Counted from the stretch's first letter, positions 3,671-31,847 are shown. The stretch: DNA of 32,000 bases from Aliivibrio fischeri ES114 (GCF_000011805.1 NC_006840.2); one strand, 5' to 3'. Program-made: numbers and translations. Notes: generated by a model not told the origin, from the letters alone.

Positions 3671-4276
3671 TTATGTTAGATCTGCCCACATTTCATCAAG
3701 TTCATCGTCAGATGGCATGTCTGAATGGGTAATCGTCTTAATCACTCGACAAGGATTACCGACAGCGACACAGTCTGGCGGAATATCTTTTGTCACTACA
3801 CTTCCTGCACCAATCACACTTCGAGCACCGATTGTCACACCATCCAATATAACAGCGTTAGCACCAATCCAAACGTTATCTCCAATCTTAATTGGGTTAG
3901 CAGAAGCAATCGGTAATACTCGCTCCGCTAAATCAAAAGGATGCCCTGCTGTACTGATCACAACATTTGGGCCAACTTGAACATGTGCTCCAATAAAAAC
4001 AGGAGCAAGATCTAAGATCTTAACTCCTGAATTTAAAAATCCACCACACTCAAAATGTATGTTCTTTCCCATATCACAATAAAATGGAGGTACGATAGTC
4101 ACTCCCTTATATTGACCAAGGATAGATTGCAATACATCGGCTCTTAACTGATGTTCTGATGGTCGGGAGTGGTTAAAGTCATACAGTTGCTCTTTTACTT
4201 CATCCTGAAATGCGCACAGTTCTTTATTTATGGGAATTTGAACTGAAAAATCCGACAATTTATGACTCATAACCAC
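3671..4276 (-). CDS. Maa/LacA-type sugar O-acetyltransferase (left-handed beta-helix, hexapeptide repeats)
   Basis: Hexapeptide-repeat core ([36 protein letters not shown]...[11 protein letters not shown]) plus the N-terminal Mac-type region. AAGGAG Shine-Dalgarno. Confidence 0.85.
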
Positions 4277-14392: not shown

Positions 14393-14938
14393 CTAAACGG
14401 ATTTGATGACTCTACAAGGATTACCCACCGCAACGCTATTATCAGGAATATCTCGGTTAACAACGCTTCCAGCGCCTATCACACAATTATTTCCAATACG
14501 TACACCTGGAAGAACGGATACATTTCCTCCTAGCCATACGTCATTACCAATAGAAATACTCGCCCCGAACTCCGTTTTTTGTCGCTCGATAGGATCAATC
14601 GGATGCGTACCAGTAGAAATCATCACATGTGGCCCAAACAGCACATTGTTTCCAATAGTAACCTTACATACATCCACAATCGTCAAATTATGGTTAGAAT
14701 AAAAATTACTTCCAATTTCAATGTTATAACCATAATCACAAAAGAAATTTGGCTCTATATGTGCTTTGTCCTTTATACACAGCAACTCACTTAAAATGGC
14801 CATTCTTTCATCAAGCTTAGTTGGGTCAGCTAAATTAAATTGGTGGCAAATCGCTTTGGCATTCATACGATCATTTAATAGCGTTTCTTCCCAAGCATCA
14901 TAAGGAAGCCCTGCTAACATTTTCTCTTTTTCAGTCAT
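14393..14938 (-). CDS. Maltose/galactoside O-acetyltransferase (Maa/LacA-type), second paralogue in the window
   Basis: Mac N-terminal motif (MLAGLPYDAW) plus a hexapeptide core ([47 protein letters not shown]). I prefer the ATG at 14938 (GAGG upstream) to the track start at 14992. Confidence 0.85.
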   Translation of the reverse strand: MTEKEKMLAGLPYDAWEETLLNDRMNAKAICHQFNLADPTKLDERMAILSELLCIKDKAHIEPNFFCDYGYNIEIGSNFYSNHNLTIVDVCKVTIGNNVLFGPHVMISTGTHPIDPIERQKTEFGASISIGNDVWLGGNVSVLPGVRIGNNCVIGAGSVVNRDIPDNSVAVGNPCRVIKSV

Positions 14939-21323: not shown

Positions 21324-23066
21324 TTATAACGTAGGTAAAGGCCCCCAATCCAATTCACCACAGAGTGTATCTAAATAACGTTCTGCGGCATAAGCATTTA
21401 CCATACCATAACCAGTCCTGTTATCACGGCCTACTTCGGCAATATCAATTGAGGTTTCGGTTAGCGCTCTACGTACTTGTGCTGCGGTACACGTTGGGTG
21501 ATAACTCCACACTAAGCTAGCAACACCCGCTACATGCGGCGTCGCCATTGAAGTACCACTGTAATACTCATAGTCTTTCCCCTCACTAGTCGAAACTGTG
21601 ACCTCTTTACCTATGTAGCCCAATAACGTCTGACCAAAGGGATGATCAACCGTTACTGAGACAATACGTGCTACATTTTTTTCATCTACAATAGAAGGAT
21701 TCTGTAAGCCTGGTAGTTTAGCGTTACTATACACAATCGCTGCGATTGCCCCAGCATCAGAACACGTTTTAATCAAGCGATTATCTAATGACATTTTATC
21801 CTGTTTTTTAACATGCTGGCGTTCAATCAAACAGATACTGTTCGACATATCACCACATTTGTAAGTGCCGTCAAACAACAAATCACAACGTTTTAAAATA
21901 CCCGTGATTGAACCTGTAACTAGGTCTGAAATGTATTGTTCATCCTTCATTATCCTACGCTTGTATGGCACGATACCACGCTTAAACTGACTAAGACCGT
22001 TTAAACTAATGTCTGAAAGCACACCTTCACCAACTGTAACGGTAGACAAAATTGCCACACCCGGAGCAGCTATTTCAACTTGGTCTGTTATTTGAGAAAA
22101 AGCTGCGTGTTCAAGATTACTATCCACTGCGGCAACCGACATTACGGAATCATAAGAAGCCGGGAAAGAGTAACTAGTATCACCATCATTACCAGCAGCT
22201 GCAATTAATAATACGCCTTTCTCATAGATAGATTGTAGCCCGTTTTTTTCGGTCATTGTCGATTTAGAACCACCTAAACTCATGTTGATAACATTTGCAC
22301 CATTGTCTACACAAGTTTGTACGGCTTTCACCAAATCTGATGAGTAGACCCAACCATTTTCATTCAACGCTTTCACGATGTACAAATTCACTTTTTGATT
22401 TGGCATGATCCCTTTGATACCTTCCGAGTTAGCAATCGCAGAGATCGTACCTGCTACGTGAGTTCCGTGGCTGTTATCTCCCCCAGGATCTGGAACACTC
22501 CAAGGAAAGTCAGAATTAGAATCGGAGACATTAGGCCCTGAAACGCGGTTACCACTCAGATCGTTGTGCTTTATATCGTAACCTGTATCAATGATACACA
22601 CTGTACGGTTACCTGCATTAAAATCATCAACAACCTGAGCCCCAACCACCTCATAGCCCCAAGGTGTAGTTTCACCACTCCATATATCAGGAGAAGCTCT
22701 TCTTAATAAAAAACGGGGTTGGTCAATTTCTACGTATTCCACATCGCTACGATTACGCAATTGCTCCAACTTCAAGTCTCCCATCTCCACACTGTAAATA
22801 GTACTGTTTCCTAACCTTTTCACTTCACGTGCTTTAAGCTTTTCTAAAACTAACTCTTCCGTTACATGCTGGTTTTCACTCATTTCACTCAACTCTGAAA
22901 AACTAGACGCATCTTCTTTAAATTTAACAATATATTTTTTCGGGAAGTTAGATTCGTCGACTTCCCTTAAGGAAGTAACCGCATTAACTTGCATTGAAAA
23001 AATCATAGCTACTACAATGATAGACAATGAAAATAAACTATTTAATTTAGCTGTTATACAATTCAT
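21324..23066 (-). CDS. Secreted subtilisin-like serine protease (peptidase S8) with an inserted PA domain
   Basis: Catalytic triad motifs (IIDTGYD, HGTHVAGT, GTSMATPHVAG). The ATG at 23066 gives a signal peptide (MNCITAKLNSLFSLSIIVVAMIFSMQVNA) and has AGAGGA upstream. The track's 23180 start adds an implausible extension. Confidence 0.9.
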   Translation of the reverse strand: MNCITAKLNSLFSLSIIVVAMIFSMQVNAVTSLREVDESNFPKKYIVKFKEDASSFSELSEMSENQHVTEELVLEKLKAREVKRLGNSTIYSVEMGDLKLEQLRNRSDVEYVEIDQPRFLLRRASPDIWSGETTPWGYEVVGAQVVDDFNAGNRTVCIIDTGYDIKHNDLSGNRVSGPNVSDSNSDFPWSVPDPGGDNSHGTHVAGTISAIANSEGIKGIMPNQKVNLYIVKALNENGWVYSSDLVKAVQTCVDNGANVINMSLGGSKSTMTEKNGLQSIYEKGVLLIAAAGNDGDTSYSFPASYDSVMSVAAVDSNLEHAAFSQITDQVEIAAPGVAILSTVTVGEGVLSDISLNGLSQFKRGIVPYKRRIMKDEQYISDLVTGSITGILKRCDLLFDGTYKCGDMSNSICLIERQHVKKQDKMSLDNRLIKTCSDAGAIAAIVYSNAKLPGLQNPSIVDEKNVARIVSVTVDHPFGQTLLGYIGKEVTVSTSEGKDYEYYSGTSMATPHVAGVASLVWSYHPTCTAAQVRRALTETSIDIAEVGRDNRTGYGMVNAYAAERYLDTLCGELDWGPLPTL

Positions 23067-23083
23067 TTTATTTATTCCTCTTT

Positions 23084-23107
23084 GAAAGCTGATTCGAAAG
23101 CTGATTC
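23084..23107. repeat. Perfect tandem duplication of a 12-mer (GAAAGCTGATTC x2)
   Basis: Read directly: 23084-23095 is identical to 23096-23107. It lies immediately upstream of the subtilase ribosome-binding site. Confidence 0.9.
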
Positions 23108-23477
23108 CTATTGCATCAAAGCAGCTCAAATCTAACTCCTTAAATACACTTGTGACAATAAAGCAACAATGCATCAACACAAGATGTAATAATTTACAGT
23201 AGCGGATTAGTTAAAAAATGTTAGTTAAAGCATTAAAGTCATTATTAAATATAAAGATGTATGCATAGTCTCATGATAATTAGGATAAAATGCTTAATAA
23301 TTGATCATCTTTTTTAAAAAATATGTCATTCAAAACAAAGTCATGTCACCGTCTTTATTTTCATCGATTACGTCACATAACAGCAAAAATACTCTCTCAA
23401 TAATAAGATCTGAGTGTATATTTATACTAATTCTATTGATAAAATAAATAATACTGATTTGTTTTTGATATTCCTGC

Positions 23478-26254: not shown

Positions 26255-26292
26255 AAAAAGCCGAACAAGTTACCCTGCTCGGCATTTTGAAT
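26255..26292. repeat. Left copy of a ~38-bp direct repeat; terminator-like hairpin (CCGAACA-AGTTACCC-TGCTCGG) with A/T runs
   Basis: AAAAAGCCGAACAAGTTACCCTGCTCGGCATTTTGAAT. It is nearly identical to 31811-31847 and sits downstream of the Nudix gene stop. Confidence 0.75.
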
Positions 26293-26316: not shown

Positions 26317-26769
26317 TTAGCTAATATCTACCCGATAAAGCGCATTAACGGGCTTTTCTACAAAATACGACCACACATGCTTAAACACTGCATGCTGATT
26401 TGGAAATGGAGCCAACTCCAGCGCTTCTTCTAAACTACACCACTTATATTCGGTATGTTCTTCATTTAGAACCACCTCTTGCTGTGGTGGACACATCACA
26501 ACAAAAACAGGGATGAGTTGAATAACATTAACACTGGCTTCGTAAAATTGTTCTAGATACTGAGCATTGTATAAATTTAAAACGTCAATTTGAGTCTCTT
26601 CCTTAAGCTCACGAACGATTGCATCAATGCCCGTTTCACCCTGTTCAATTGAGCCAGCAACATGACACCAAAAGCCACCCTTTACTCTTTTCATGAGTAG
26701 CATTTTAACTTCGCCATCAATTTTTGATAACGCCACGCCAGACACGACAGATGAACTTAGTGGGATCAT
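26317..26769 (-). CDS. NUDIX hydrolase
   Basis: Nudix box GSIEQGETGIDAIVRELKEETQI (G-x5-E-x7-REUxEExGU). GAGGT Shine-Dalgarno. Confidence 0.85.
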   Translation of the reverse strand: MIPLSSSVVSGVALSKIDGEVKMLLMKRVKGGFWCHVAGSIEQGETGIDAIVRELKEETQIDVLNLYNAQYLEQFYEASVNVIQLIPVFVVMCPPQQEVVLNEEHTEYKWCSLEEALELAPFPNQHAVFKHVWSYFVEKPVNALYRVDIS

Positions 26770-26805: not shown

Positions 26806-26940
26806 CTATTTATCTTTTTCTTTGTTTTGTAAATATTCGGCATATTTTTTAGAAATAAACTTGTGTATATGAAGCCCTGTTTTACGAAGTAAATACCAAT
26901 CTATCGCAATTAATATGAGTAAACCTATTACCGTTCCCAT
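26806..26940 (-). CDS. Small single-pass membrane protein (44 aa)
   Basis: The ATG at 26940 is preceded by AAGGAGGG at optimal spacing. It encodes one TM helix (VIGLLILIAIDWYLL) and a basic tail. The track start at 27003 lacks a ribosome-binding site. Confidence 0.5.
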   Translation of the reverse strand: MGTVIGLLILIAIDWYLLRKTGLHIHKFISKKYAEYLQNKEKDK

Positions 26941-27096
26941 TTGAAACCCTCCTTGAACATAGAACCATAACTCTACCAAACCATTGGTAAAATTTATAAA
27001 CATGAAGGCGATTTATGCTAAGTAGCTATGATTTCAGGTAAGTTTAGTCTATTGAGGGAGAATGCTCGTTTGAAGTAGAGAGAAAAGATGCCGCTG

Positions 27097-27171
27097 CCAC
27101 GTTAAAAACTAAATGCAACGCATAGTAAAAATGCCATGCGTTGCGAATTACTTTTAAACAGATTGCTATAG
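27097..27171 (-). repeat. attC-like repeat R1 (degenerate copy)
   Basis: It aligns over ~75 bp with R2 and R3. The central stem is GCAACGCAT...ATGCGTTGC. The antitoxin stop codon (27166-27168) lies inside its gene-proximal end. The gene-proximal box reads CTATAGC rather than an ...AAC box. Confidence 0.5.
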
Positions 27172-27480
27172 TTCAGCGATGTGCGACAGAGTTTCGGGGT
27201 GGCGCTGAACCAACTTTAGAAGAGTAACAGCTTGCCCATTAGGTGCGCTGCGCCCCTGCTCCCAGTTTTCTAATGTACGTGATGATGTATGCAGTAAACG
27301 AGCGAATACACCACGAGACATATTGAATTGCTCACGAATACTCACAATTTCATCAGGCGAGATATCTAACTCACTGATGTCATTAACTTGGTGAGTTTTC
27401 AGGGTTACTTTACCCTCTGAATGCTCTTTAGCTTCAACAAGTGCTGAACTTAATTCAGTAAATAAGTCACGATTGCTCAT
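27166..27480 (-). CDS. HigA-2/COG2944-like XRE-HTH antitoxin (104 aa), no cognate toxin gene
   Basis: The N-terminal region MSNRDLFTELSSALVEAKEHSEGKVTLKTH is followed by an HTH (MSRGVFARLLHTSSRTLENWEQGRSAPNGQAVTLLKLV). The ATG at 27480 is preceded by GGAGG. The track's upstream extension to 27579 is a TTG read-through. Confidence 0.7.
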   Translation of the reverse strand: MSNRDLFTELSSALVEAKEHSEGKVTLKTHQVNDISELDISPDEIVSIREQFNMSRGVFARLLHTSSRTLENWEQGRSAPNGQAVTLLKLVQRHPETLSHIAEL

Positions 27481-27550
27481 TGCGCCACGCCTCCATAAAA
27501 GCTTAAACTCATTATCACTGGGGTATTCTTTCGATACTTTCCAGATACAA

Positions 27551-27579
27551 AGTATACGCAAGTAACGTACAGATAGCAA
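27551..27579 (-). promoter_or_regulatory. Candidate sigma70 promoter for the antitoxin gene (TTGCTA-17 nt-TATACT), flanked by ACGTA/TACGT palindromes
   Basis: Read on the minus strand: the -35 TTGCTA is at 27579-27574 and the -10 TATACT at 27556-27551. TACGTTAATCACGTA and GTACGTTACTTGCGTATAC half-palindromes overlap it. Confidence 0.3.
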
Positions 27580-27650
27580 AACTATACGTGATTAACGTAG
27601 TTATGAGTTTTGGGTCGGTAAATCTGACCTGAGCTATCGTCGCATTAAGT

Positions 27651-27736
27651 TGTAAACAACGCCTCCTTAAGCACTAAACGCAACGCATAGTAAAAATTCC
27701 ACGCGTTGCGAATCACTCTTAAACAAATTGTTAAAT
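27651..27736 (-). repeat. attC-like repeat R2
   Basis: In gene orientation it begins with ATTTAAC (fits RYYYAAC) directly after the TAA of the 462-aa ORF. The central stem is CGCAACGC...GCGTTGCG, with TTAAG/CTTAA and AACAA/TTGTT flank pairings. It ends in CGTTGTTTACA, a box shared with R3. Confidence 0.55.
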
Positions 27737-29125
27737 TTACACAGCAATCCAACTACTTTTCAGCCCGGTTGAGGAATCTTTTCTTTGAATCAAGCCTTTA
27801 TCTCTTAATTTAGAAAATTGGTACGTTACCTTTTCTGTTCGGTCTATACCTGTGAGATCTCGAGCTTGACGATTGTTAATTTCACCATTCGATTCGATGA
27901 ATTTCATGATTAAGGTCTCAGGATCATCATTGGAACTATGCCTTAATATAATCTTCACATAGTTTCCATCCTCCAGAATTTCAGGATCTCGAAGTCCCAT
28001 AGAACGCATACGTTGAAAAGCTGTATTCATGCCTTCACCTAAATCTTTATTTGGGGAGTCTTTATACTTGGATAAAATACGAACAATTTTCGAATTTCGT
28101 GAACATCTATTTTCGAGTATGTTTTCAGCAGTGACGAAACCAGTAAATCGACCTGGACTTTTAAACTCGATTCGGTTGTTGAAAATGCTAACCAACACAT
28201 TATCTGAGATTGCGTAATCACGATGAATAACAGTATTTACTAATATTTCCCAAATAGTTTCTTTCGGGTATTTAGTTTCTACTAATCCCTCTACTTTCCA
28301 TACCTTATTTTTAGATAAAAACAGCTCAATCTTAGAATATGCGTCCTGAATTTGTTGATATAAAGACCCTTCAATCGCGATATTGTCTTCAGTTAAAGCA
28401 TCTCTATCAATATCTTCACCATCTGTATCATAGCGGACAATCCGGATCGCACATTGCTTAGGTAGTTCTGCTGAAGGATTTTCCGCGAACAAAAGTACTG
28501 CAGCAACAGTTGGTGCCCATGTCTCAGAGTCGACCAACTTTTCTTTTAAAAGAAATGTTATAGGATCAGGTGCTCTAATTGGAAGCTCAGATAAGAACTT
28601 TGTAAGCTCAATACTAGAATCAAGCTCGTCTATTGAGGCAGAATTAACAAGAGAATCTTCTTCAGAAATTATTCCTTTCGCATGTGTTAACTCTAAGATC
28701 TTAATTGGCGCGGTTACTGGAAGAGACTGTGCCCCTTGTCGAAGAAAAATTTTTTTCTTCGCTGTTTCATGAACAGATAAACCTTTATTGATCTTAACCC
28801 TTAACACATAGTTCCGAGACTCATTAACTCTTGTTAAAAAATCAAAACGGAAATCAACAGAAGGTACAAGTTCACTCAACGCCTGAATAACCGAGTTATA
28901 AGCTTCTGTTGATTCTTGACCTTGCCATCTTTTTTCAGGAATAACTTCGTCTTTATCATCCGCAATTCCGACAAGTATTTCACCACCATCGGCATTAGCG
29001 AATGCAACAGCAATTTTTTGGACTTTTTCACCTTTTAGTCCAAATGCTTTTCTGTCGAAAAAATGGTCTTCATCTTTAGTACAATAATACAAAGATTCTT
29101 TTTCTTGTAATTCTACGATTTTCAC
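27737..29125 (-). CDS. AlbA_2 (Schlafen-like) + HATPase_c_4 + C-terminal wHTH protein (COG2865 architecture)
   Basis: N-terminal AlbA_2 pattern (E...DRKAFGLKGEKVQKIAVAFANADGGEILVGIADD). HATPase_c_4 pattern (WEILVNTVIHRDYAISDNVLVSIFNNRIEFKSPGRF). C-terminal HTH-like region (INNRQARDLTGIDRTEKVTYQFSKLRDKGLI). GTG start with AGGA 6 nt upstream. Confidence 0.8.
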   Translation of the reverse strand: MKIVELQEKESLYYCTKDEDHFFDRKAFGLKGEKVQKIAVAFANADGGEILVGIADDKDEVIPEKRWQGQESTEAYNSVIQALSELVPSVDFRFDFLTRVNESRNYVLRVKINKGLSVHETAKKKIFLRQGAQSLPVTAPIKILELTHAKGIISEEDSLVNSASIDELDSSIELTKFLSELPIRAPDPITFLLKEKLVDSETWAPTVAAVLLFAENPSAELPKQCAIRIVRYDTDGEDIDRDALTEDNIAIEGSLYQQIQDAYSKIELFLSKNKVWKVEGLVETKYPKETIWEILVNTVIHRDYAISDNVLVSIFNNRIEFKSPGRFTGFVTAENILENRCSRNSKIVRILSKYKDSPNKDLGEGMNTAFQRMRSMGLRDPEILEDGNYVKIILRHSSNDDPETLIMKFIESNGEINNRQARDLTGIDRTEKVTYQFSKLRDKGLIQRKDSSTGLKSSWIAV

Positions 29126-29160
29126 GGTAGTTCCTAATTAATTCACTCTTAAATACTTTG

Positions 29161-30426
29161 TTAAGCATTTCTTTTTGCTTTCTTACTAGCCCTGACTTCA
29201 TCAGCTATTGCTTTTAATGTTACTTCTTGATGCTTCAGGATATGCTGCAAATCATTGATAGGTAAAGTATACTGCTTTCTCATTTCCGATTCTTTATGCG
29301 AAGACTTACTTAATACCTCTTCAGACATACACTCATTTAATTTAATTTGAAAATGTAACTCATGGATACTTGCACTATGCATACGTTTTAATCTGTCATC
29401 TATTACAAGAAAGTTAATTTGATTTAACTTCAATATCTCCGAGAATTTATCATCGAACGAAACAAAGAAAGGCAAAAAAAACGAACCTAAAGCCGTAATT
29501 GTTGACATAGTTTCCAACGTTCGCATATGAGAAATGTCCCACGCCATTCCTTTTAGTGCTGTTTCAATATTTTTTGCAACATCGGCTACCGGACCAAAGA
29601 AACGTACACGCTTTGGTTTTTCTAGAAATTGAAGAGCTACAAGCAATTCATATTTTGGCAGTTTACCCAATTGCAACACACAAAAATCTATTAGTTTACG
29701 AAAGACCTCATCTGGTTTAGCTGGATTTTTTAACCACAAAATAGCTAATTCAAACAATATAATCTGAGTAAAAACAGCCTTATACTCTCGATTTTTAACC
29801 TCTTCATTGGTTACAAAACTTTCGTAATCCTCCTCCGACTCTTTTAGCAACTCTTGCTCGTTACACATGAATTTAGGCTTATAAGGATCTTTTTCAAAAC
29901 TTTCCCAGTCTATATGATCAAGTTTTTTAAAAGCTAAAATAGTGTTTAGGGGGCGAAGGTTTTTATTATCTTCACGTGACAACCTTAAATTCTCGAATAA
30001 AAATGGTACTAGATCCGTCTGAAGTGAGTACTCTTTTTTTAGCTTAATTAAAGTAATGATCCTATCTTGATCTTTCTTATTTATATTTTCATGATTCACA
30101 TAAGCTCTCACACGTTCACCAACATTCGAGTCAAAAGAGAAACTCCAATCGATCGGAACTGAAGATTGCCCACCAGTTAAATGACTTTGAAGAGCCGTAG
30201 AGGCAGAATTAAGGAATACCTTAGGTCCAATAAAAAGAGGTGTTATCCAAGGGGCTTTATTTGTTATATCTTCTAAATTAATATGCAAACCAGCTGCATT
30301 AGATGACTCTGTAGATATAACTGTCCGAATGTAAACTGCATCCTGAGGTCGAGAAATATTCTCCAACCTTTCTAAGTCACCATTTACCAGAATTTCATAA
30401 ATTTCATCTACTACAGGTCTTTCCAT
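29161..30426 (-). CDS. Hypothetical protein (421 aa), no recognisable family; weak PIN-like acidic motif pattern
   Basis: The ATG at 30426 is preceded by GAGGA, whereas the track start at 30525 would begin inside repeat R3. The protein is largely helical. The motifs are WSFSFDSNVG (D99), GMAWDISH (D297) and FFVSFDDKF (D325/D326). Confidence 0.7.
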   Translation of the reverse strand: MERPVVDEIYEILVNGDLERLENISRPQDAVYIRTVISTESSNAAGLHINLEDITNKAPWITPLFIGPKVFLNSASTALQSHLTGGQSSVPIDWSFSFDSNVGERVRAYVNHENINKKDQDRIITLIKLKKEYSLQTDLVPFLFENLRLSREDNKNLRPLNTILAFKKLDHIDWESFEKDPYKPKFMCNEQELLKESEEDYESFVTNEEVKNREYKAVFTQIILFELAILWLKNPAKPDEVFRKLIDFCVLQLGKLPKYELLVALQFLEKPKRVRFFGPVADVAKNIETALKGMAWDISHMRTLETMSTITALGSFFLPFFVSFDDKFSEILKLNQINFLVIDDRLKRMHSASIHELHFQIKLNECMSEEVLSKSSHKESEMRKQYTLPINDLQHILKHQEVTLKAIADEVRASKKAKRNA

Positions 30427-30466
30427 ATTTTCCTCAAACTTTGAAACGCTTAACGCTATGTTAAAA

Positions 30467-30571
30467 TGTAAGCAACGAAATATCGAAACTCCTGCATACC
30501 ACTTTAAACACAAAACGCAGCGCATATAAAAATGCTACGAGTTGCGAATCACTCATAAAAAATTGTTATAT
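30467..30571 (-). repeat. attC-like repeat R3
   Basis: In gene orientation it begins with ATATAAC (RYYYAAC-like) about 20 nt after the downstream ORF stop. The core aligns with R1 and R2. The distal box CGTTGCTTACA (30467-30477) matches R2, with ~21 nt of extra spacer. Confidence 0.55.
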
Positions 30572-30594: not shown

Positions 30595-31452
30595 CTATTT
30601 ATGTTTAAAACTTAGCTCATTATTTAGTTTATTTTCCAACGTTTGAACCTGCTTCACCATTGAATCTAGGGTTATCTCAGTTTCCTTAAGCTTCCAGCTA
30701 TTTTCTTCTGGGACACTCCCTTTAATTGCAATACCACTTTCCATCCACTTTATGAGAGTTTTATAGAACCCTAATATGCGCTATTGTTTCAGTATGTAAT
30801 CATCTAAATCGTCTGCCATTACCTGAAAAGGTCTGAATGCGTTATATCCTATGTATACAGCGGTGATAGATCCTTTAGGAAAACTATACATTGACATTAG
30901 TCGACCATTGATTAGCTCAGTTTTAAATAAGGAACGCTTCAACTGAAGCTCACCCACAACACGTACTTCTTCTTCGTAAGACCAATCTTGTGACTTGAAA
31001 AGAAATGTTCTTTTCAATATTTCTTCAGTGTTGTTTAGGAACTCACATTGATAAGAACTGGAATCATTATTTGTAGGCTTAGTTCTTGTATAAATCATAT
31101 CTCCTTTTGACGCTGGTATCACAAACTCATCCGAGTTTAATTGTGAAACTATAGAATCAAACTCAATTACAACACCCTCGTATGAGTTTGTATAATGAGC
31201 CCACATTAAAGGGTTTAGCGGTTCTCTTGTTAAAGATAAAACTCTATGATTTACTCTCGCTTTCAATAGGACTTGGCTTATTGTGGTCATAGCAGCACAA
31301 TCCGAATTATGGCTAGATTCCCATAACCCCGTAGCTCTCCCCTCGAAAGGATAATTAAAGTTATCAATTTGATTGAAACCAATTTTTAATGTTTCAATGA
31401 TTTTTTCAGCAGCACTAAATGAAGTGTACTTATATAACCCATTATGTAATTT
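30595..31452 (-). pseudogene. DUF2971-family gene, apparently disrupted (start-proximal frameshift plus in-frame TAG)
   Basis: The open frame from 31452 translates as KLHNGLYKYTSFSAAEKIIETL...NFNYPFE...LMWAHYTNSYEGVVIEFD, which are DUF2971 hallmarks. It has no in-frame start before 31290. An ATG at 31442 with one missing base would give M-G-L-Y-K-Y. After the TAG at 30781-30783 the same frame continues for 61 more codons to 30595. Confidence 0.55.
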
Positions 31453-31810
31453 CTACGTTTGAACTTTAGTGAAATATAACACTCTCTCTACGACAAAATG
31501 TCTTTTAGTTCCCTACCACATTTGTCGCTAGCTATTCTATTAAGGCATCTCGCCTTTTTCTAGGACTCAAACAAATCAACACTATAAGCTCGTCGGTCGA
31601 TATAGTTCGCTGCTTTCATACTTTGCGACAACCTGTCGCTTTGTGCTGTTAGCTCAAACTCTTCTTGCGCACATCATACCCTTTAATGGGTAGATTTCAT
31701 TTCCTTTTTTCTTGTTTTGCTTATAAGTTCTAATTTTTCATTAAATCCTAACTTATTGATAATATTAACTATAGATAGAAATATTTCTCTTTTACCAATC
31801 ATCAGACACA

Positions 31811-31847
31811 AAAAAACCGAGCAAGTTACCCTGCTCGGCTTTTGAAT
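31811..31847. repeat. Right copy of the ~38-bp direct repeat; terminator hairpin (CCGAGCA-AGTTACCC-TGCTCGG)
   Basis: AAAAAACCGAGCAAGTTACCCTGCTCGGCTTTTGAAT. It serves as the terminator of the partial gene at 31875-32000 and is near-identical to 26255-26292. Confidence 0.75.

Follow-up and report, generated by a model that had tools for sequence, protein, structure and literature searches.

Several lines of evidence indicate that the repeats at gene ends in a 32-kb window of Aliivibrio fischeri ES114 (the window being the whole stretch of DNA analysed, 32,000 nucleotides) are very probably attC sites (59-base elements) of the Vibrio chromosomal-integron type that end gene cassettes, and that they form a short integrase-less array (a CALIN) on chromosome I between the fdh operon and a cupin gene. 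CALINs, which are clusters of attC sites lacking an integron integrase, were defined by Cury et al. 2016 (PMC4889954) and have already been reported in Aliivibrio by IntegronFinder (PMC13603697). Applying a CALIN test that asks for two or more same-strand attC sites and for intI to be absent within 4 kb (default; 10 kb was also checked), we found three model matches and one remnant on the minus strand within 3.5 kb, and no intI in the window or in the 8 kb upstream. This agrees with the original prediction, which had proposed an integrase-less attC cluster or a detached piece of a chromosomal integron, and both the family matches and the co-oriented arrays found elsewhere support that proposal. 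Four sites were recognized:

30448 to 30571, minus strand: attC R3, full length, diverged (covariance model 93.6 bits, E = 6e-24; nhmmer 78.5 bits)
29143 to 29163, minus strand: fourth attC remnant, R'' and L'' only (TAACAAAGTATTTAAGAGTGA), found by pattern search
27634 to 27736, minus strand: attC R2 (covariance model 84.9 bits, E = 2e-21; three-way alignment with V. rotiferianus and V. ouci cassettes)
27087 to 27171, minus strand: attC R1, decayed terminal site (covariance model 54.1 bits, E = 5e-13)

Membership of the window sites in the attC class was judged by a family-specific covariance model made in this analysis, built from 139 copies in Vibrio cassette arrays. The model check that had been suggested for these repeats, when run with this family model, gave significant results for R1, R2 and R3, which were exactly the three matches in the 32-kb window, all on the minus strand and in one 3.5-kb stretch; an Rfam search of the window gave no match. 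A 23-nt degenerate core (ATTCGCAACNCRTRGNATTTTTA) likewise occurred three times in the window, always on the minus strand, versus 0.02 expected from shuffles, and the pattern search for the remnant gave two matches versus 0.02 expected. The three repeats described previously were thus recovered at their predicted places and align along the whole length assigned to them, and all three are attC sites, although the fourth remnant at 29163-29143 had been missed. Their extent had been put at about 75 bp; however, the unit is about 128 nt long and the repeats correspond to its 5' two-thirds, with homology continuing to 30448 in R3 and to about 27634 in R2.

Matches to the core motif were detected in more than 119 loci, nearly all from Vibrionaceae. 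The family unit of about 128 nt extends from TAAC to GTTA, both of which are (nearly) invariant, and conservation ends after GTTA. Within the 119 fetched loci we counted 657 family copies, which were co-oriented in all 95 loci containing more than one copy (median spacing 623 bp) and had an ORF end at the R'' box in 79% of cases; in 212 cases, the upstream ORF ends with the TAA of TAAC as its stop codon. IntI genes were found beside family arrays in four loci, two of which (L040 and L077) contain IntIA homologues divergent to the adjoining arrays, and IntIA homologues are also present in the other two (L010 and L037). The family thus shows the attC core boxes (R'' RYYYAAC and R' GTTRRRY, with conservation up to G|TT), both of which are present in R3, together with compensated L''/L' pairing, location at ORF ends in co-oriented arrays, and association with intI in complete integrons.

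The bottom strand of an attC site folds by pairing R'' with R' and L'' with L'; the integron integrase cleaves attC at the G|TT of R' and then excises or inserts a unit consisting of one ORF and its attC. For the L''/L' stem of the family, compensatory changes were observed in seven pairs altered on both sides (130 cells), a level of covariation reached by none of 500 shuffles, and in one alignment (A2) the L-box helix was 98% paired with both-side changes in 5 of 10 pairs. In the family alignment, AAA opposite GGC is also placed as an unpaired spacer. The '' arm has two additional bases, at column 17 and at column 21 or 22 (opposite column 110); this spacer and the additional bases would fit the canonical attC layout. 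Thermodynamic folding of single strands did not recover the R/L pairing, even in canonical copies, and R3 folded no better than shuffled sequence (z = 0.1 to 0.4); therefore, the structural support comes from covariation only.

The same data bear on the idea that the repeats are REP/ERIC/MITE-like intergenic elements dispersed in the genome and unrelated to integrons, which we consider extremely unlikely. The repeats are indeed intergenic imperfect palindromes, with a central hairpin that folds well in R1 and R2; however, copies in the 119 loci are always co-oriented with cassette-length spacing and with ORF ends at the TAAC box, intI adjoins family copies in four loci, conservation ends exactly at GTTA, and the window contains just three matches per 32 kb, in one 3.5-kb stretch on one strand. 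REP/ERIC-like scattering, named in the original prediction as an observation that would speak against attC sites, was not seen; in every locus examined, the copies form co-oriented clusters linked to ORF ends.

With regard to individual sites, an ORF lies 5' of each of the four, all on the minus strand. R3 covers covariance-model positions 1-131, keeps 7 of 10 L pairs, and is the only one of the four that still has both core boxes, R'' ATATAAC (30571-30565) and R' GTTAAGC (30454-30448); its predicted crossover G|TT is between 30454 and 30453. R2 has an intact R'' ATTTAAC (27736-27730) and a 21-nt internal gap, three of the pairs between its L'' (TTTGTT) and L' (AATGCG) are mismatched, and its R' is cut to G--ATAG (27638-27634) with loss of the TT of the crossover GTT; it looks like a fusion of two different attCs. 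R1 retains only family positions 4-89 (nhmmer), i.e., the first 85 nt, having lost L', R', and the 3' third, and its R'' is mutated to CTATAGC; the same decayed 3' part is conserved in six other strains, where it likewise lies at the distal array end. The remnant at 29163-29143 corresponds to family consensus positions 5-25 and lacks L' and R'. The R''-like boxes proposed earlier (ATTTAAC, ATATAAC, and a degenerate CTATAGC) were all found to be R''. All three repeats begin at or close to a minus-strand ORF 3' end: the CTATAGC of R1 contains a TAG stop (27168-27166), the ATTTAAC of R2 directly abuts the TAA stop (27739-27737) of the upstream ORF, and R3 starts 22 nt past the stop of a 49-aa ORF. 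In the remnant, the 421-aa gene terminates at the TAA within TAAC. Other details need correction: the proposed central stem (CGCAACGC/GCGTTGCG) is an internal hairpin of the variable region rather than the R/L stem, and the CGTTG(T/C)TTACA box taken for the crossover is actually a conserved GCGTTGCTCAC segment 5' of L', the true R' being GTTAAGC in R3, destroyed in R2, and absent in R1.

The palindromes could also be mainly operators or terminators, for example binding sites of a helix-turn-helix antitoxin, with a secondary likeness to attC. R1 and R2 flank a DNA-binding antitoxin gene, and hairpins at gene 3' ends can stop transcription, but in Vibrio arrays the same sequence is located 3' of hundreds of genes unrelated to one another, the hairpin is not followed by a T-run, and the hairpin of R3 is broken by uncompensated changes, yet the TAAC and GTTA cores are kept. 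Such a primary role is thus very unlikely.

The attC array appears to lack an integrase of its own. As stated in the original prediction, no intI is visible: Pfam scans of the large ORFs of the window revealed no integrase, and tblastn with an IntIA probe found nothing in the window at E <= 1. A complete integron would have intI, attI, and a Pc promoter next to its first cassette; for this array, neither intI nor a remnant of it was found. R3 is located 1.4 kb from the window end, on the side where an integrase would be expected, so the window might cover the distal portion of a complete integron, with the integrase just beyond it. However, the next 8 kb contain the formate dehydrogenase operon, with a terminator hairpin at its end, and no recombinase, this is also true of eight other A. 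fischeri strains, whose loci fetched for the same slot yielded no integrase, the IntIA search was empty, and the literature places the ES114 integron proper, which has VF_A locus tags, on the other chromosome (PMC11014356). An integrase just outside the window is therefore highly improbable.

In the order of the minus strand (5' to 3'), the integrase-less array contains DUF2971, 421-aa, Schlafen/AlbA_2, and toxin-antitoxin genes, followed by a 65-aa ORF and a NUDIX gene as fixed remains:

30781 to 31290, minus strand: first cassette gene, DUF2971 / PDC-S31-like, 169 aa (Pfam, PADLOC)
30595 to 30744: 49-aa ORF 3' of the DUF2971 gene
29161 to 30426, minus strand: second cassette gene, 421-aa protein of a rare family
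27737 to 29125, minus strand: third cassette gene, 462-aa Schlafen/AlbA_2 + HATPase_c_4 protein (Pfam, PADLOC)
27481 to 27534, minus strand: RelE/HigB-type toxin pseudogene remnant (alignment with intact cassettes in loci L014 and L051)
27166 to 27480, minus strand: MqsA/HigA-type antitoxin, intact, 104 aa, fourth cassette (Pfam MqsA_antitoxin)
26806 to 27003, minus strand: 65-aa ORF of cassette origin, attC gone (homology to a cassette in locus L096)
26317 to 26769, minus strand: NUDIX hydrolase gene (Pfam NUDIX; PADLOC PDC-S07)

The tblastn similarity of the DUF2971 gene continues upstream of its ATG, and this gene is probably degraded because the versions in other strains are 262-307 aa long. 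The 421-aa protein has 33 homologue clusters and no match in Pfam, NCBIfam, or PADLOC. Its unit shows 91% nucleotide identity to V. cyclitrophicus over 30454-29157, and this homology begins exactly at the G of the R3 GTT (30454) and stops at TAACAAA. The 462-aa protein matches AAW85849.1 of ES114 exactly, and proteins from Vibrio sp. Sgm 5 and V. chagasii fall into the same 90%-identity cluster. In the toxin remnant, ATG has changed to CTG and deletions of 32 and 223 nt have occurred, while RelE + MqsA pairs are intact in A. fischeri loci L125 and L127. Arrays of V. rotiferianus and V. ouci contain cassettes to which the antitoxin shows 97% amino acid and 88% nucleotide identity, and the G|TTATAGCTCAGG junction is common to all of them. 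Cassette homology breaks exactly at G|TT. The 65-aa ORF is 67% identical at the amino acid and 77% at the nucleotide level to a cassette between two attCs in locus L096.

The array is situated on A. fischeri ES114 chromosome I with the fdh (formate dehydrogenase) operon on one side and the cupin gene on the other. Three elements are located at or near the ends of the island:

31811 to 31843, minus strand: terminator-like hairpin 3' of the formate dehydrogenase cytochrome b gene (repeat family D8)
31477 to 31652, minus strand: 176-nt element with bounds CTAAC...GCGTTA (7-strain alignment and blastn block boundaries)
26255 to 26287, minus strand: hairpin direct repeat, distal copy, where the island ends

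The two hairpins are the proximal (31811-31843) and distal copies of one 33-nt direct repeat (family D8) that brackets the entire variable island, and both copies were found in identical arrangement in 9 of 9 distinct A. fischeri locus versions examined. The 176-nt element is kept in all strains, and strain sequences part directly after its GTTA in the 7-strain alignment and the blastn blocks. It may represent a long site, similar to attC or attI, at the array's proximal end; covariation in the 7-strain alignment was weak, and the family covariance model, run on strain MJ11 (L124) with filters off, gave no match at the junction of this element. In one locus (L128), a 119-aa acetyltransferase gene is inserted between the leader and the 176-nt element. 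At the distal end of the island, the NUDIX gene is present in 8 of the 9 locus versions and was not called in the remaining one (L131).

The same slot in eight other A. fischeri strains contains 3-8 attC matches each, with different cargo, including reverse transcriptase, TIR, NACHT, DarT, and toxin-antitoxin genes. Many of these cassettes lie beside well-formed attCs, and a single cassette was found behind five different attCs in different strains. The slot therefore probably turns over, whether by the chromosome II integron integrase acting in trans, by homologous recombination inside attCs following DNA uptake, or by a combination of the two. We tentatively suggest, as a possibility somewhat short of even, that the slot is a second, living cassette platform without its own integrase, which is stocked with anti-phage and toxin-antitoxin cassettes having Vibrio-type attCs foreign to the VFR-type integron of the host, and which is renewed strain by strain at the fdh-proximal 176-nt element (GCGTTA), via the chromosome II integrase in trans and/or transformation and attC recombination. 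If so, the ES114 version would be decayed and frozen, cassettes would indeed move between A. fischeri and other vibrios, and a CALIN could serve as an active hotspot of defence instead of being a relic. Judged by the decay of its sites, the ES114 array itself is probably a frozen relic from which individual cassettes can no longer be excised.

Comparison with known systems places the array in context. Like other CALINs, it has at least two co-oriented attCs flanking cassettes with intI absent within 4-10 kb, its cassettes are mostly of unknown, non-resistance function, and a complete integron is located elsewhere in the genome. Unlike them, the slot has a fixed position between two core genes, with a duplicated terminator hairpin bracketing it, the cassette content varies from strain to strain, and most of the ES114 sites are damaged, making the ES114 array a borderline CALIN by strict site count. 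The category is therefore not new, as CALINs are already known; the slot described here varies greatly between strains. The sites share the ~128-nt TAAC-AAA-L''...L'-GGC-GTTA architecture of attCs in Vibrio sedentary chromosomal integrons (VCR/VPR; V. cholerae, V. parahaemolyticus, and the V. harveyi group), with which a whole cassette is also held in common (88% nucleotide identity), but they reside in an Aliivibrio genome, away from an integrase, and are partly deleted; profile scores were 63-78 bits for the sites here versus 41-45 bits for published VPR and VCR examples.

The chromosome II integron of the same host, which has VFR-type attCs (PMC1382264, PMC11014356), also contains co-oriented cassettes, rich in toxin-antitoxin and unknown-function genes. 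According to the literature, its array has an integrase (PMC11014356, PMC1382264, PMC13603697), whereas the chromosome I array does not. VFR sites (TAACAAATGCATCAACACGATTT...) gave 1.9 bits or no match against the chromosome I site profile, and the VFR core was absent from every chromosome I locus; judged from these comparisons, the chromosome I attCs are of a different type from those of the chromosome II integron. Based on the chromosome II array, A. fischeri was thought not to swap cassettes with other vibrios (PMC1382264); in contrast, chromosome I has Vibrio-type cassettes and attCs (one cassette with 88% identity to V. rotiferianus and one with 91% to V. cyclitrophicus). The slot also resembles defence islands or hotspots in carrying strain-specific gene sets between two core genes, including reverse transcriptase, TIR, NACHT, DarT-NADAR, AAA_15, Schlafen-like, and DUF2971 genes. 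However, its modules are separated by attC sites and its cassette genes all have one direction, which points to cassette-type assembly. Recent work has described integrons as stores of defence cassettes (PMC12614218), and a slot that is variable in every strain examined and carries defence-type genes fits this view.

These results explain four intergenic repeats and the mosaic gene content from VF_1352 to about VF_1357 (numbers deduced from the order of protein accessions) in a squid symbiont that is widely used as a model. They also show, through the hybrid and truncated attCs, a route by which cassettes turn into ordinary fixed chromosomal genes.

The three repeats R1, R2 and R3 proposed in the original prediction are real. 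R1 and R2 form a 78-nt pair with 83% identity, and all three constitute a 36-nt family according to a repeat finder run on the window; they share about 75 columns in a three-way minus-strand alignment, and a degenerate 23-nt core matches the minus strand three times in 32 kb and the plus strand nowhere, where chance alone would give 0.02 matches. Their placement at ORF 3' ends also holds, as all genes flanking them lie on the minus strand and every repeat begins at or directly after the end of an ORF. An Rfam scan of the window gave no match at gathering thresholds. Single-strand DNA folding of 75-100-nt pieces and of full sites, on both strands, yielded only an internal hairpin, and the long-range R/L pairing of attC sites (integron recombination sites with the order R''-L''...L'-R') was not recovered by minimum-free-energy folding, canonical copies included. 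Because it fails on canonical copies too, such folding cannot serve as a diagnostic for attCs of this long type, and covariation was used in its place.

The core motif, run against a collection of species-representative genomes, matched more than 119 loci. Nearly all are from Vibrionaceae (V. harveyi, V. rotiferianus, V. owensii, V. furnissii, V. mimicus, Photobacterium, Grimontia, and Aliivibrio), and many of the loci are small contigs with several co-oriented copies. In these loci the core is the inner portion of a unit of about 128 nt with the consensus [C/A]TAAC-AAA-CTGTTTAAGAGTG-ATTCGCAACGCGTGGCATTTTTACTATGCGTTG...GCGTTGCTCACACCTTAACAG-GGC-GTTA, whose conservation begins at TAAC and ends directly after GTTA. 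An HMM scan of 119 loci identified 657 copies; multi-copy loci were co-oriented in 95 of 95 cases, with copies a median of 623 bp apart. An ORF end coincided with the TAAC box in 79%, and the TAA of TAAC was the stop codon itself in 212 cases. The outer arms CTGTT.AAG..TG and CA.CTTAACAG pair with each other, and this pairing is kept by compensatory changes (e.g., C-G to T-A at columns 12/118, T-A to C-G at 15/115, and T-A to G-C at 23/109); none of 500 shuffles reached the observed covariation, and shifting the partner columns abolished the arm pairing. In the family alignment, TAAC and GTTA are paired, AAA and GGC form an unpaired spacer, and there are two extra bases on the 5' arm; this arrangement matches the canonical attC layout. 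Homologues of the integron integrase IntIA lie divergently beside the arrays in two of these loci (L040 and L077) and are present in two more (L010 and L037). Since ORF ends and intI set the orientation of the family, the plus strand, on which GTTAAAT fits GTTRRRY, was ruled out as the attC top strand. Two details of the original prediction have to be reassigned: the CGTTG(T/C)TTACA box, taken for the crossover region (R'), corresponds to the conserved GCGTTGCTCAC segment on the 5' side of L' (family columns ~98-108), and what was proposed as a central stem is the attC variable region's internal hairpin.

A covariance model built from 139 Vibrio copies and run over the whole window with filters off gave three matches on the minus strand; no other match exceeded 10 bits. 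A fourth site, overlooked in the original prediction, is a remnant. The sites are as follows:

30572-30444, minus strand: R3, full-length match, 93.6 bits
30571-30565 and 30454-30448, minus strand: core boxes of R3, R'' ATATAAC and R' GTTAAGC
29163-29143, minus strand: attC remnant TAACAAAGTATTTAAGAGTGA, only R'' and L'' left
27737-27628, minus strand: R2, 84.9 bits, R'' ATTTAAC intact, 21 internal nt missing, R' damaged
27172-27053, minus strand: R1, 54.1 bits, R'' turned into CTATAGC

Three of the four ES114 sites are decayed. Damage to R3 affects the internal hairpin and three L pairs. In R2 the arms disagree (L'' TTTGTT, L' AATGCG) and the crossover triplet has lost its TT (GCGACG--ATAGCTCAGG in ES114 versus GCGGCGTTATAGCTCAGG in V. 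rotiferianus and V. ouci); because of the L''/L' mismatch and the internal gap, its sequence suggests two neighboring attCs fused by deletion. Homology of R1 is limited to 27171-27087 (profile positions 4-89), and six other strains keep its degenerate 3' part at their distal array end, implying that R1 is an old, fixed array end. The remnant sits exactly at the stop of a gene for a 421-aa protein, the TAA of its TAAC being that stop codon, and 17 nt before the start of a 462-aa gene; these genes are thus separate cassettes and not one two-gene cassette.

Homology between ES114 and other species breaks precisely at cassette boundaries. The antitoxin cassette (R2 to R1) has 88% nucleotide and 97% protein identity to array cassettes of V. 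rotiferianus and V. ouci, and its 5' junction is common to all three. The antitoxin is intact in ES114; its partner in this terminal toxin-antitoxin cassette, a RelE/HigB-type toxin (27481-27534, minus strand), is a pseudogene with ATG changed to CTG and deletions of 32 and 223 nt, and is intact in two other A. fischeri loci (L125 and L127). The 421-aa unit and a V. cyclitrophicus locus share 91% identity over 1298 nt, and the homology runs exactly from the G of R3's GTT (30454) to TAACAAA; a search found no attC beside the V. cyclitrophicus homologue. Downstream of R1, a 65-aa ORF has its counterpart in another locus (L096), in a cassette flanked by attCs on both sides.

The 421-aa protein itself (29161-30426, minus strand) belongs to a rare family of 33 clusters without annotation. 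V. cyclitrophicus has a 93% identical copy, which sits by itself between MatE and gcvP, and a 61% homologue in P. chlororaphis adjoins a Pycsar pair; the gene may be a defence gene. We also tested the 421-aa and 462-aa genes as a possible conserved pair and rejected this, since homologues of the 421-aa gene occur alone or beside the Pycsar pair and an attC remnant lies between the two in the window. The DUF2971 (PDC-S31-like) gene of the first cassette (30781-31290, minus strand) encodes 169 aa, compared with 262-307 aa elsewhere; similarity reaches upstream of its ATG, a separate 49-aa ORF (30595-30744, minus strand) follows, and the gene is probably degraded. We found no paper mentioning VF_1352 to VF_1356.

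Exact ES114 protein matches in the window are AAW85845, AAW85846, AAW85848, and AAW85849; the cupin gene is VF_1351, and we take the array to be carried on chromosome I. In gene orientation, a formate dehydrogenase (fdh) operon with a terminal hairpin terminator lies upstream of the array, and cupin and GGDEF genes lie downstream. The integron described for ES114 is on the other chromosome (VF_A0636-0659, 36 cassettes) (PMC11014356, PMC1382264). Neither an integrase nor an integrase remnant was detected in the window, in 8 kb fetched upstream, or in the corresponding slot between fdh and cupin genes of eight other strains. With three model matches and a remnant, the suggested cluster of attC sites lacking an integrase (CALIN) therefore stands, in agreement with the published definition (PMC4889954). 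For specialists this category is ordinary, and IntegronFinder reports CALINs in almost all Aliivibrio genomes (PMC13603697); what deserves attention is that the attC type is foreign, that defence-type cargo turns over from strain to strain in a model symbiont, and that some sites are hybrid or truncated.

Scored against the chromosome I family profile, two sites of the chromosome II array of ES114 (VFR type, from the supplement of PMC11014356) gave 1.9 bits or no match, compared with 63-78 bits for the window sites and 41-45 bits for published VPR and VCR sites. The VFR core motif was absent from every chromosome I locus examined, and a second attC type in the chromosome I array resembles V. 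parahaemolyticus sites. The attCs of chromosome I are thus of Vibrio type, plus a second, V. parahaemolyticus-like type. The chromosome II array was described as having V. fischeri sites that form their own clade without exchange (PMC1382264); the chromosome I array, however, differs in carrying Vibrio-type attCs.

In all nine strains, two directly repeated copies of the fdh terminator hairpin, 33 nt each, GCCGAGCAGGGTAACTTG[C/T]TCGG (31811-31843 and 26255-26287), bracket the whole variable island and may mark an ancient insertion. After the proximal (fdh-side) hairpin come about 170 conserved nt and then the following element:

31652-31477, minus strand: 176-nt element bounded by CTAAC...GCGTTA, conserved in all strains (window; L124, L127-L131)

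All strain sequences diverge directly after its GTTA, and in one of them (L128) an acetyltransferase gene precedes it. This element could represent either a long attC or an attI-like orphan site. It gave no match with the family model, which scored at most 7.4 bits at the proximal junction of strain MJ11, and the alignment of the element contains seven sequences, too few to show covariation.

The same slot in the eight other A. fischeri genomes, including MJ11, contains three to eight attC model matches each, all in gene direction and each directly after the end of a gene or gene pair. The cargo differs in every strain (reverse transcriptases, TIR, NACHT, DarT-NADAR, AAA_15, CTD10/MC6, GIY-YIG, Zeta toxin, and RelE-MqsA). 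Strain-specific cassettes are the fdh-proximal ones; the distal CSD-DUF1294, RelE/MqsA, and Zeta cassettes recur in constant order. AAC/GTT is kept in about 25 of 36 slot sites, and pairing is 81% overall versus 97% in Vibrio arrays, with covariation still present. The CSD-DUF1294 cassette occurs behind five different attCs with the joint at GTTA, which is evidence for integrase-type joints. Two sites in other strains (L127 4141-4271 and L129 7319-7451) have the L'-R' part in common and different 5' halves, and the L129 site has mismatched L''/L' like R2; such hybrids, with halves from different subtypes, suggest that recombination took place within attCs and not at G|TT. Excision depends on two functional sites, and since R3 is the only one left in ES114, apart perhaps from the proximal element, the array would now be inert. 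Renewal of the slot in the species might proceed through the chromosome II integrase acting in trans, through natural transformation followed by homologous recombination within attCs, or through both; integron integrases tolerate foreign attC types (PMC12614218, PMC4889954).

Elsewhere in the window, a subtilase (Peptidase_S8) gene beside the GGDEF gene (21324-23180, minus strand) is found in only some A. fischeri strains; it looks split in one locus (L120), and MJ11 and several other strains lack it. An 82-nt repeat with 71% identity (3738-3819 and 14403-14484) joins two hexapeptide-repeat acetyltransferase genes and looks like ordinary paralogy.
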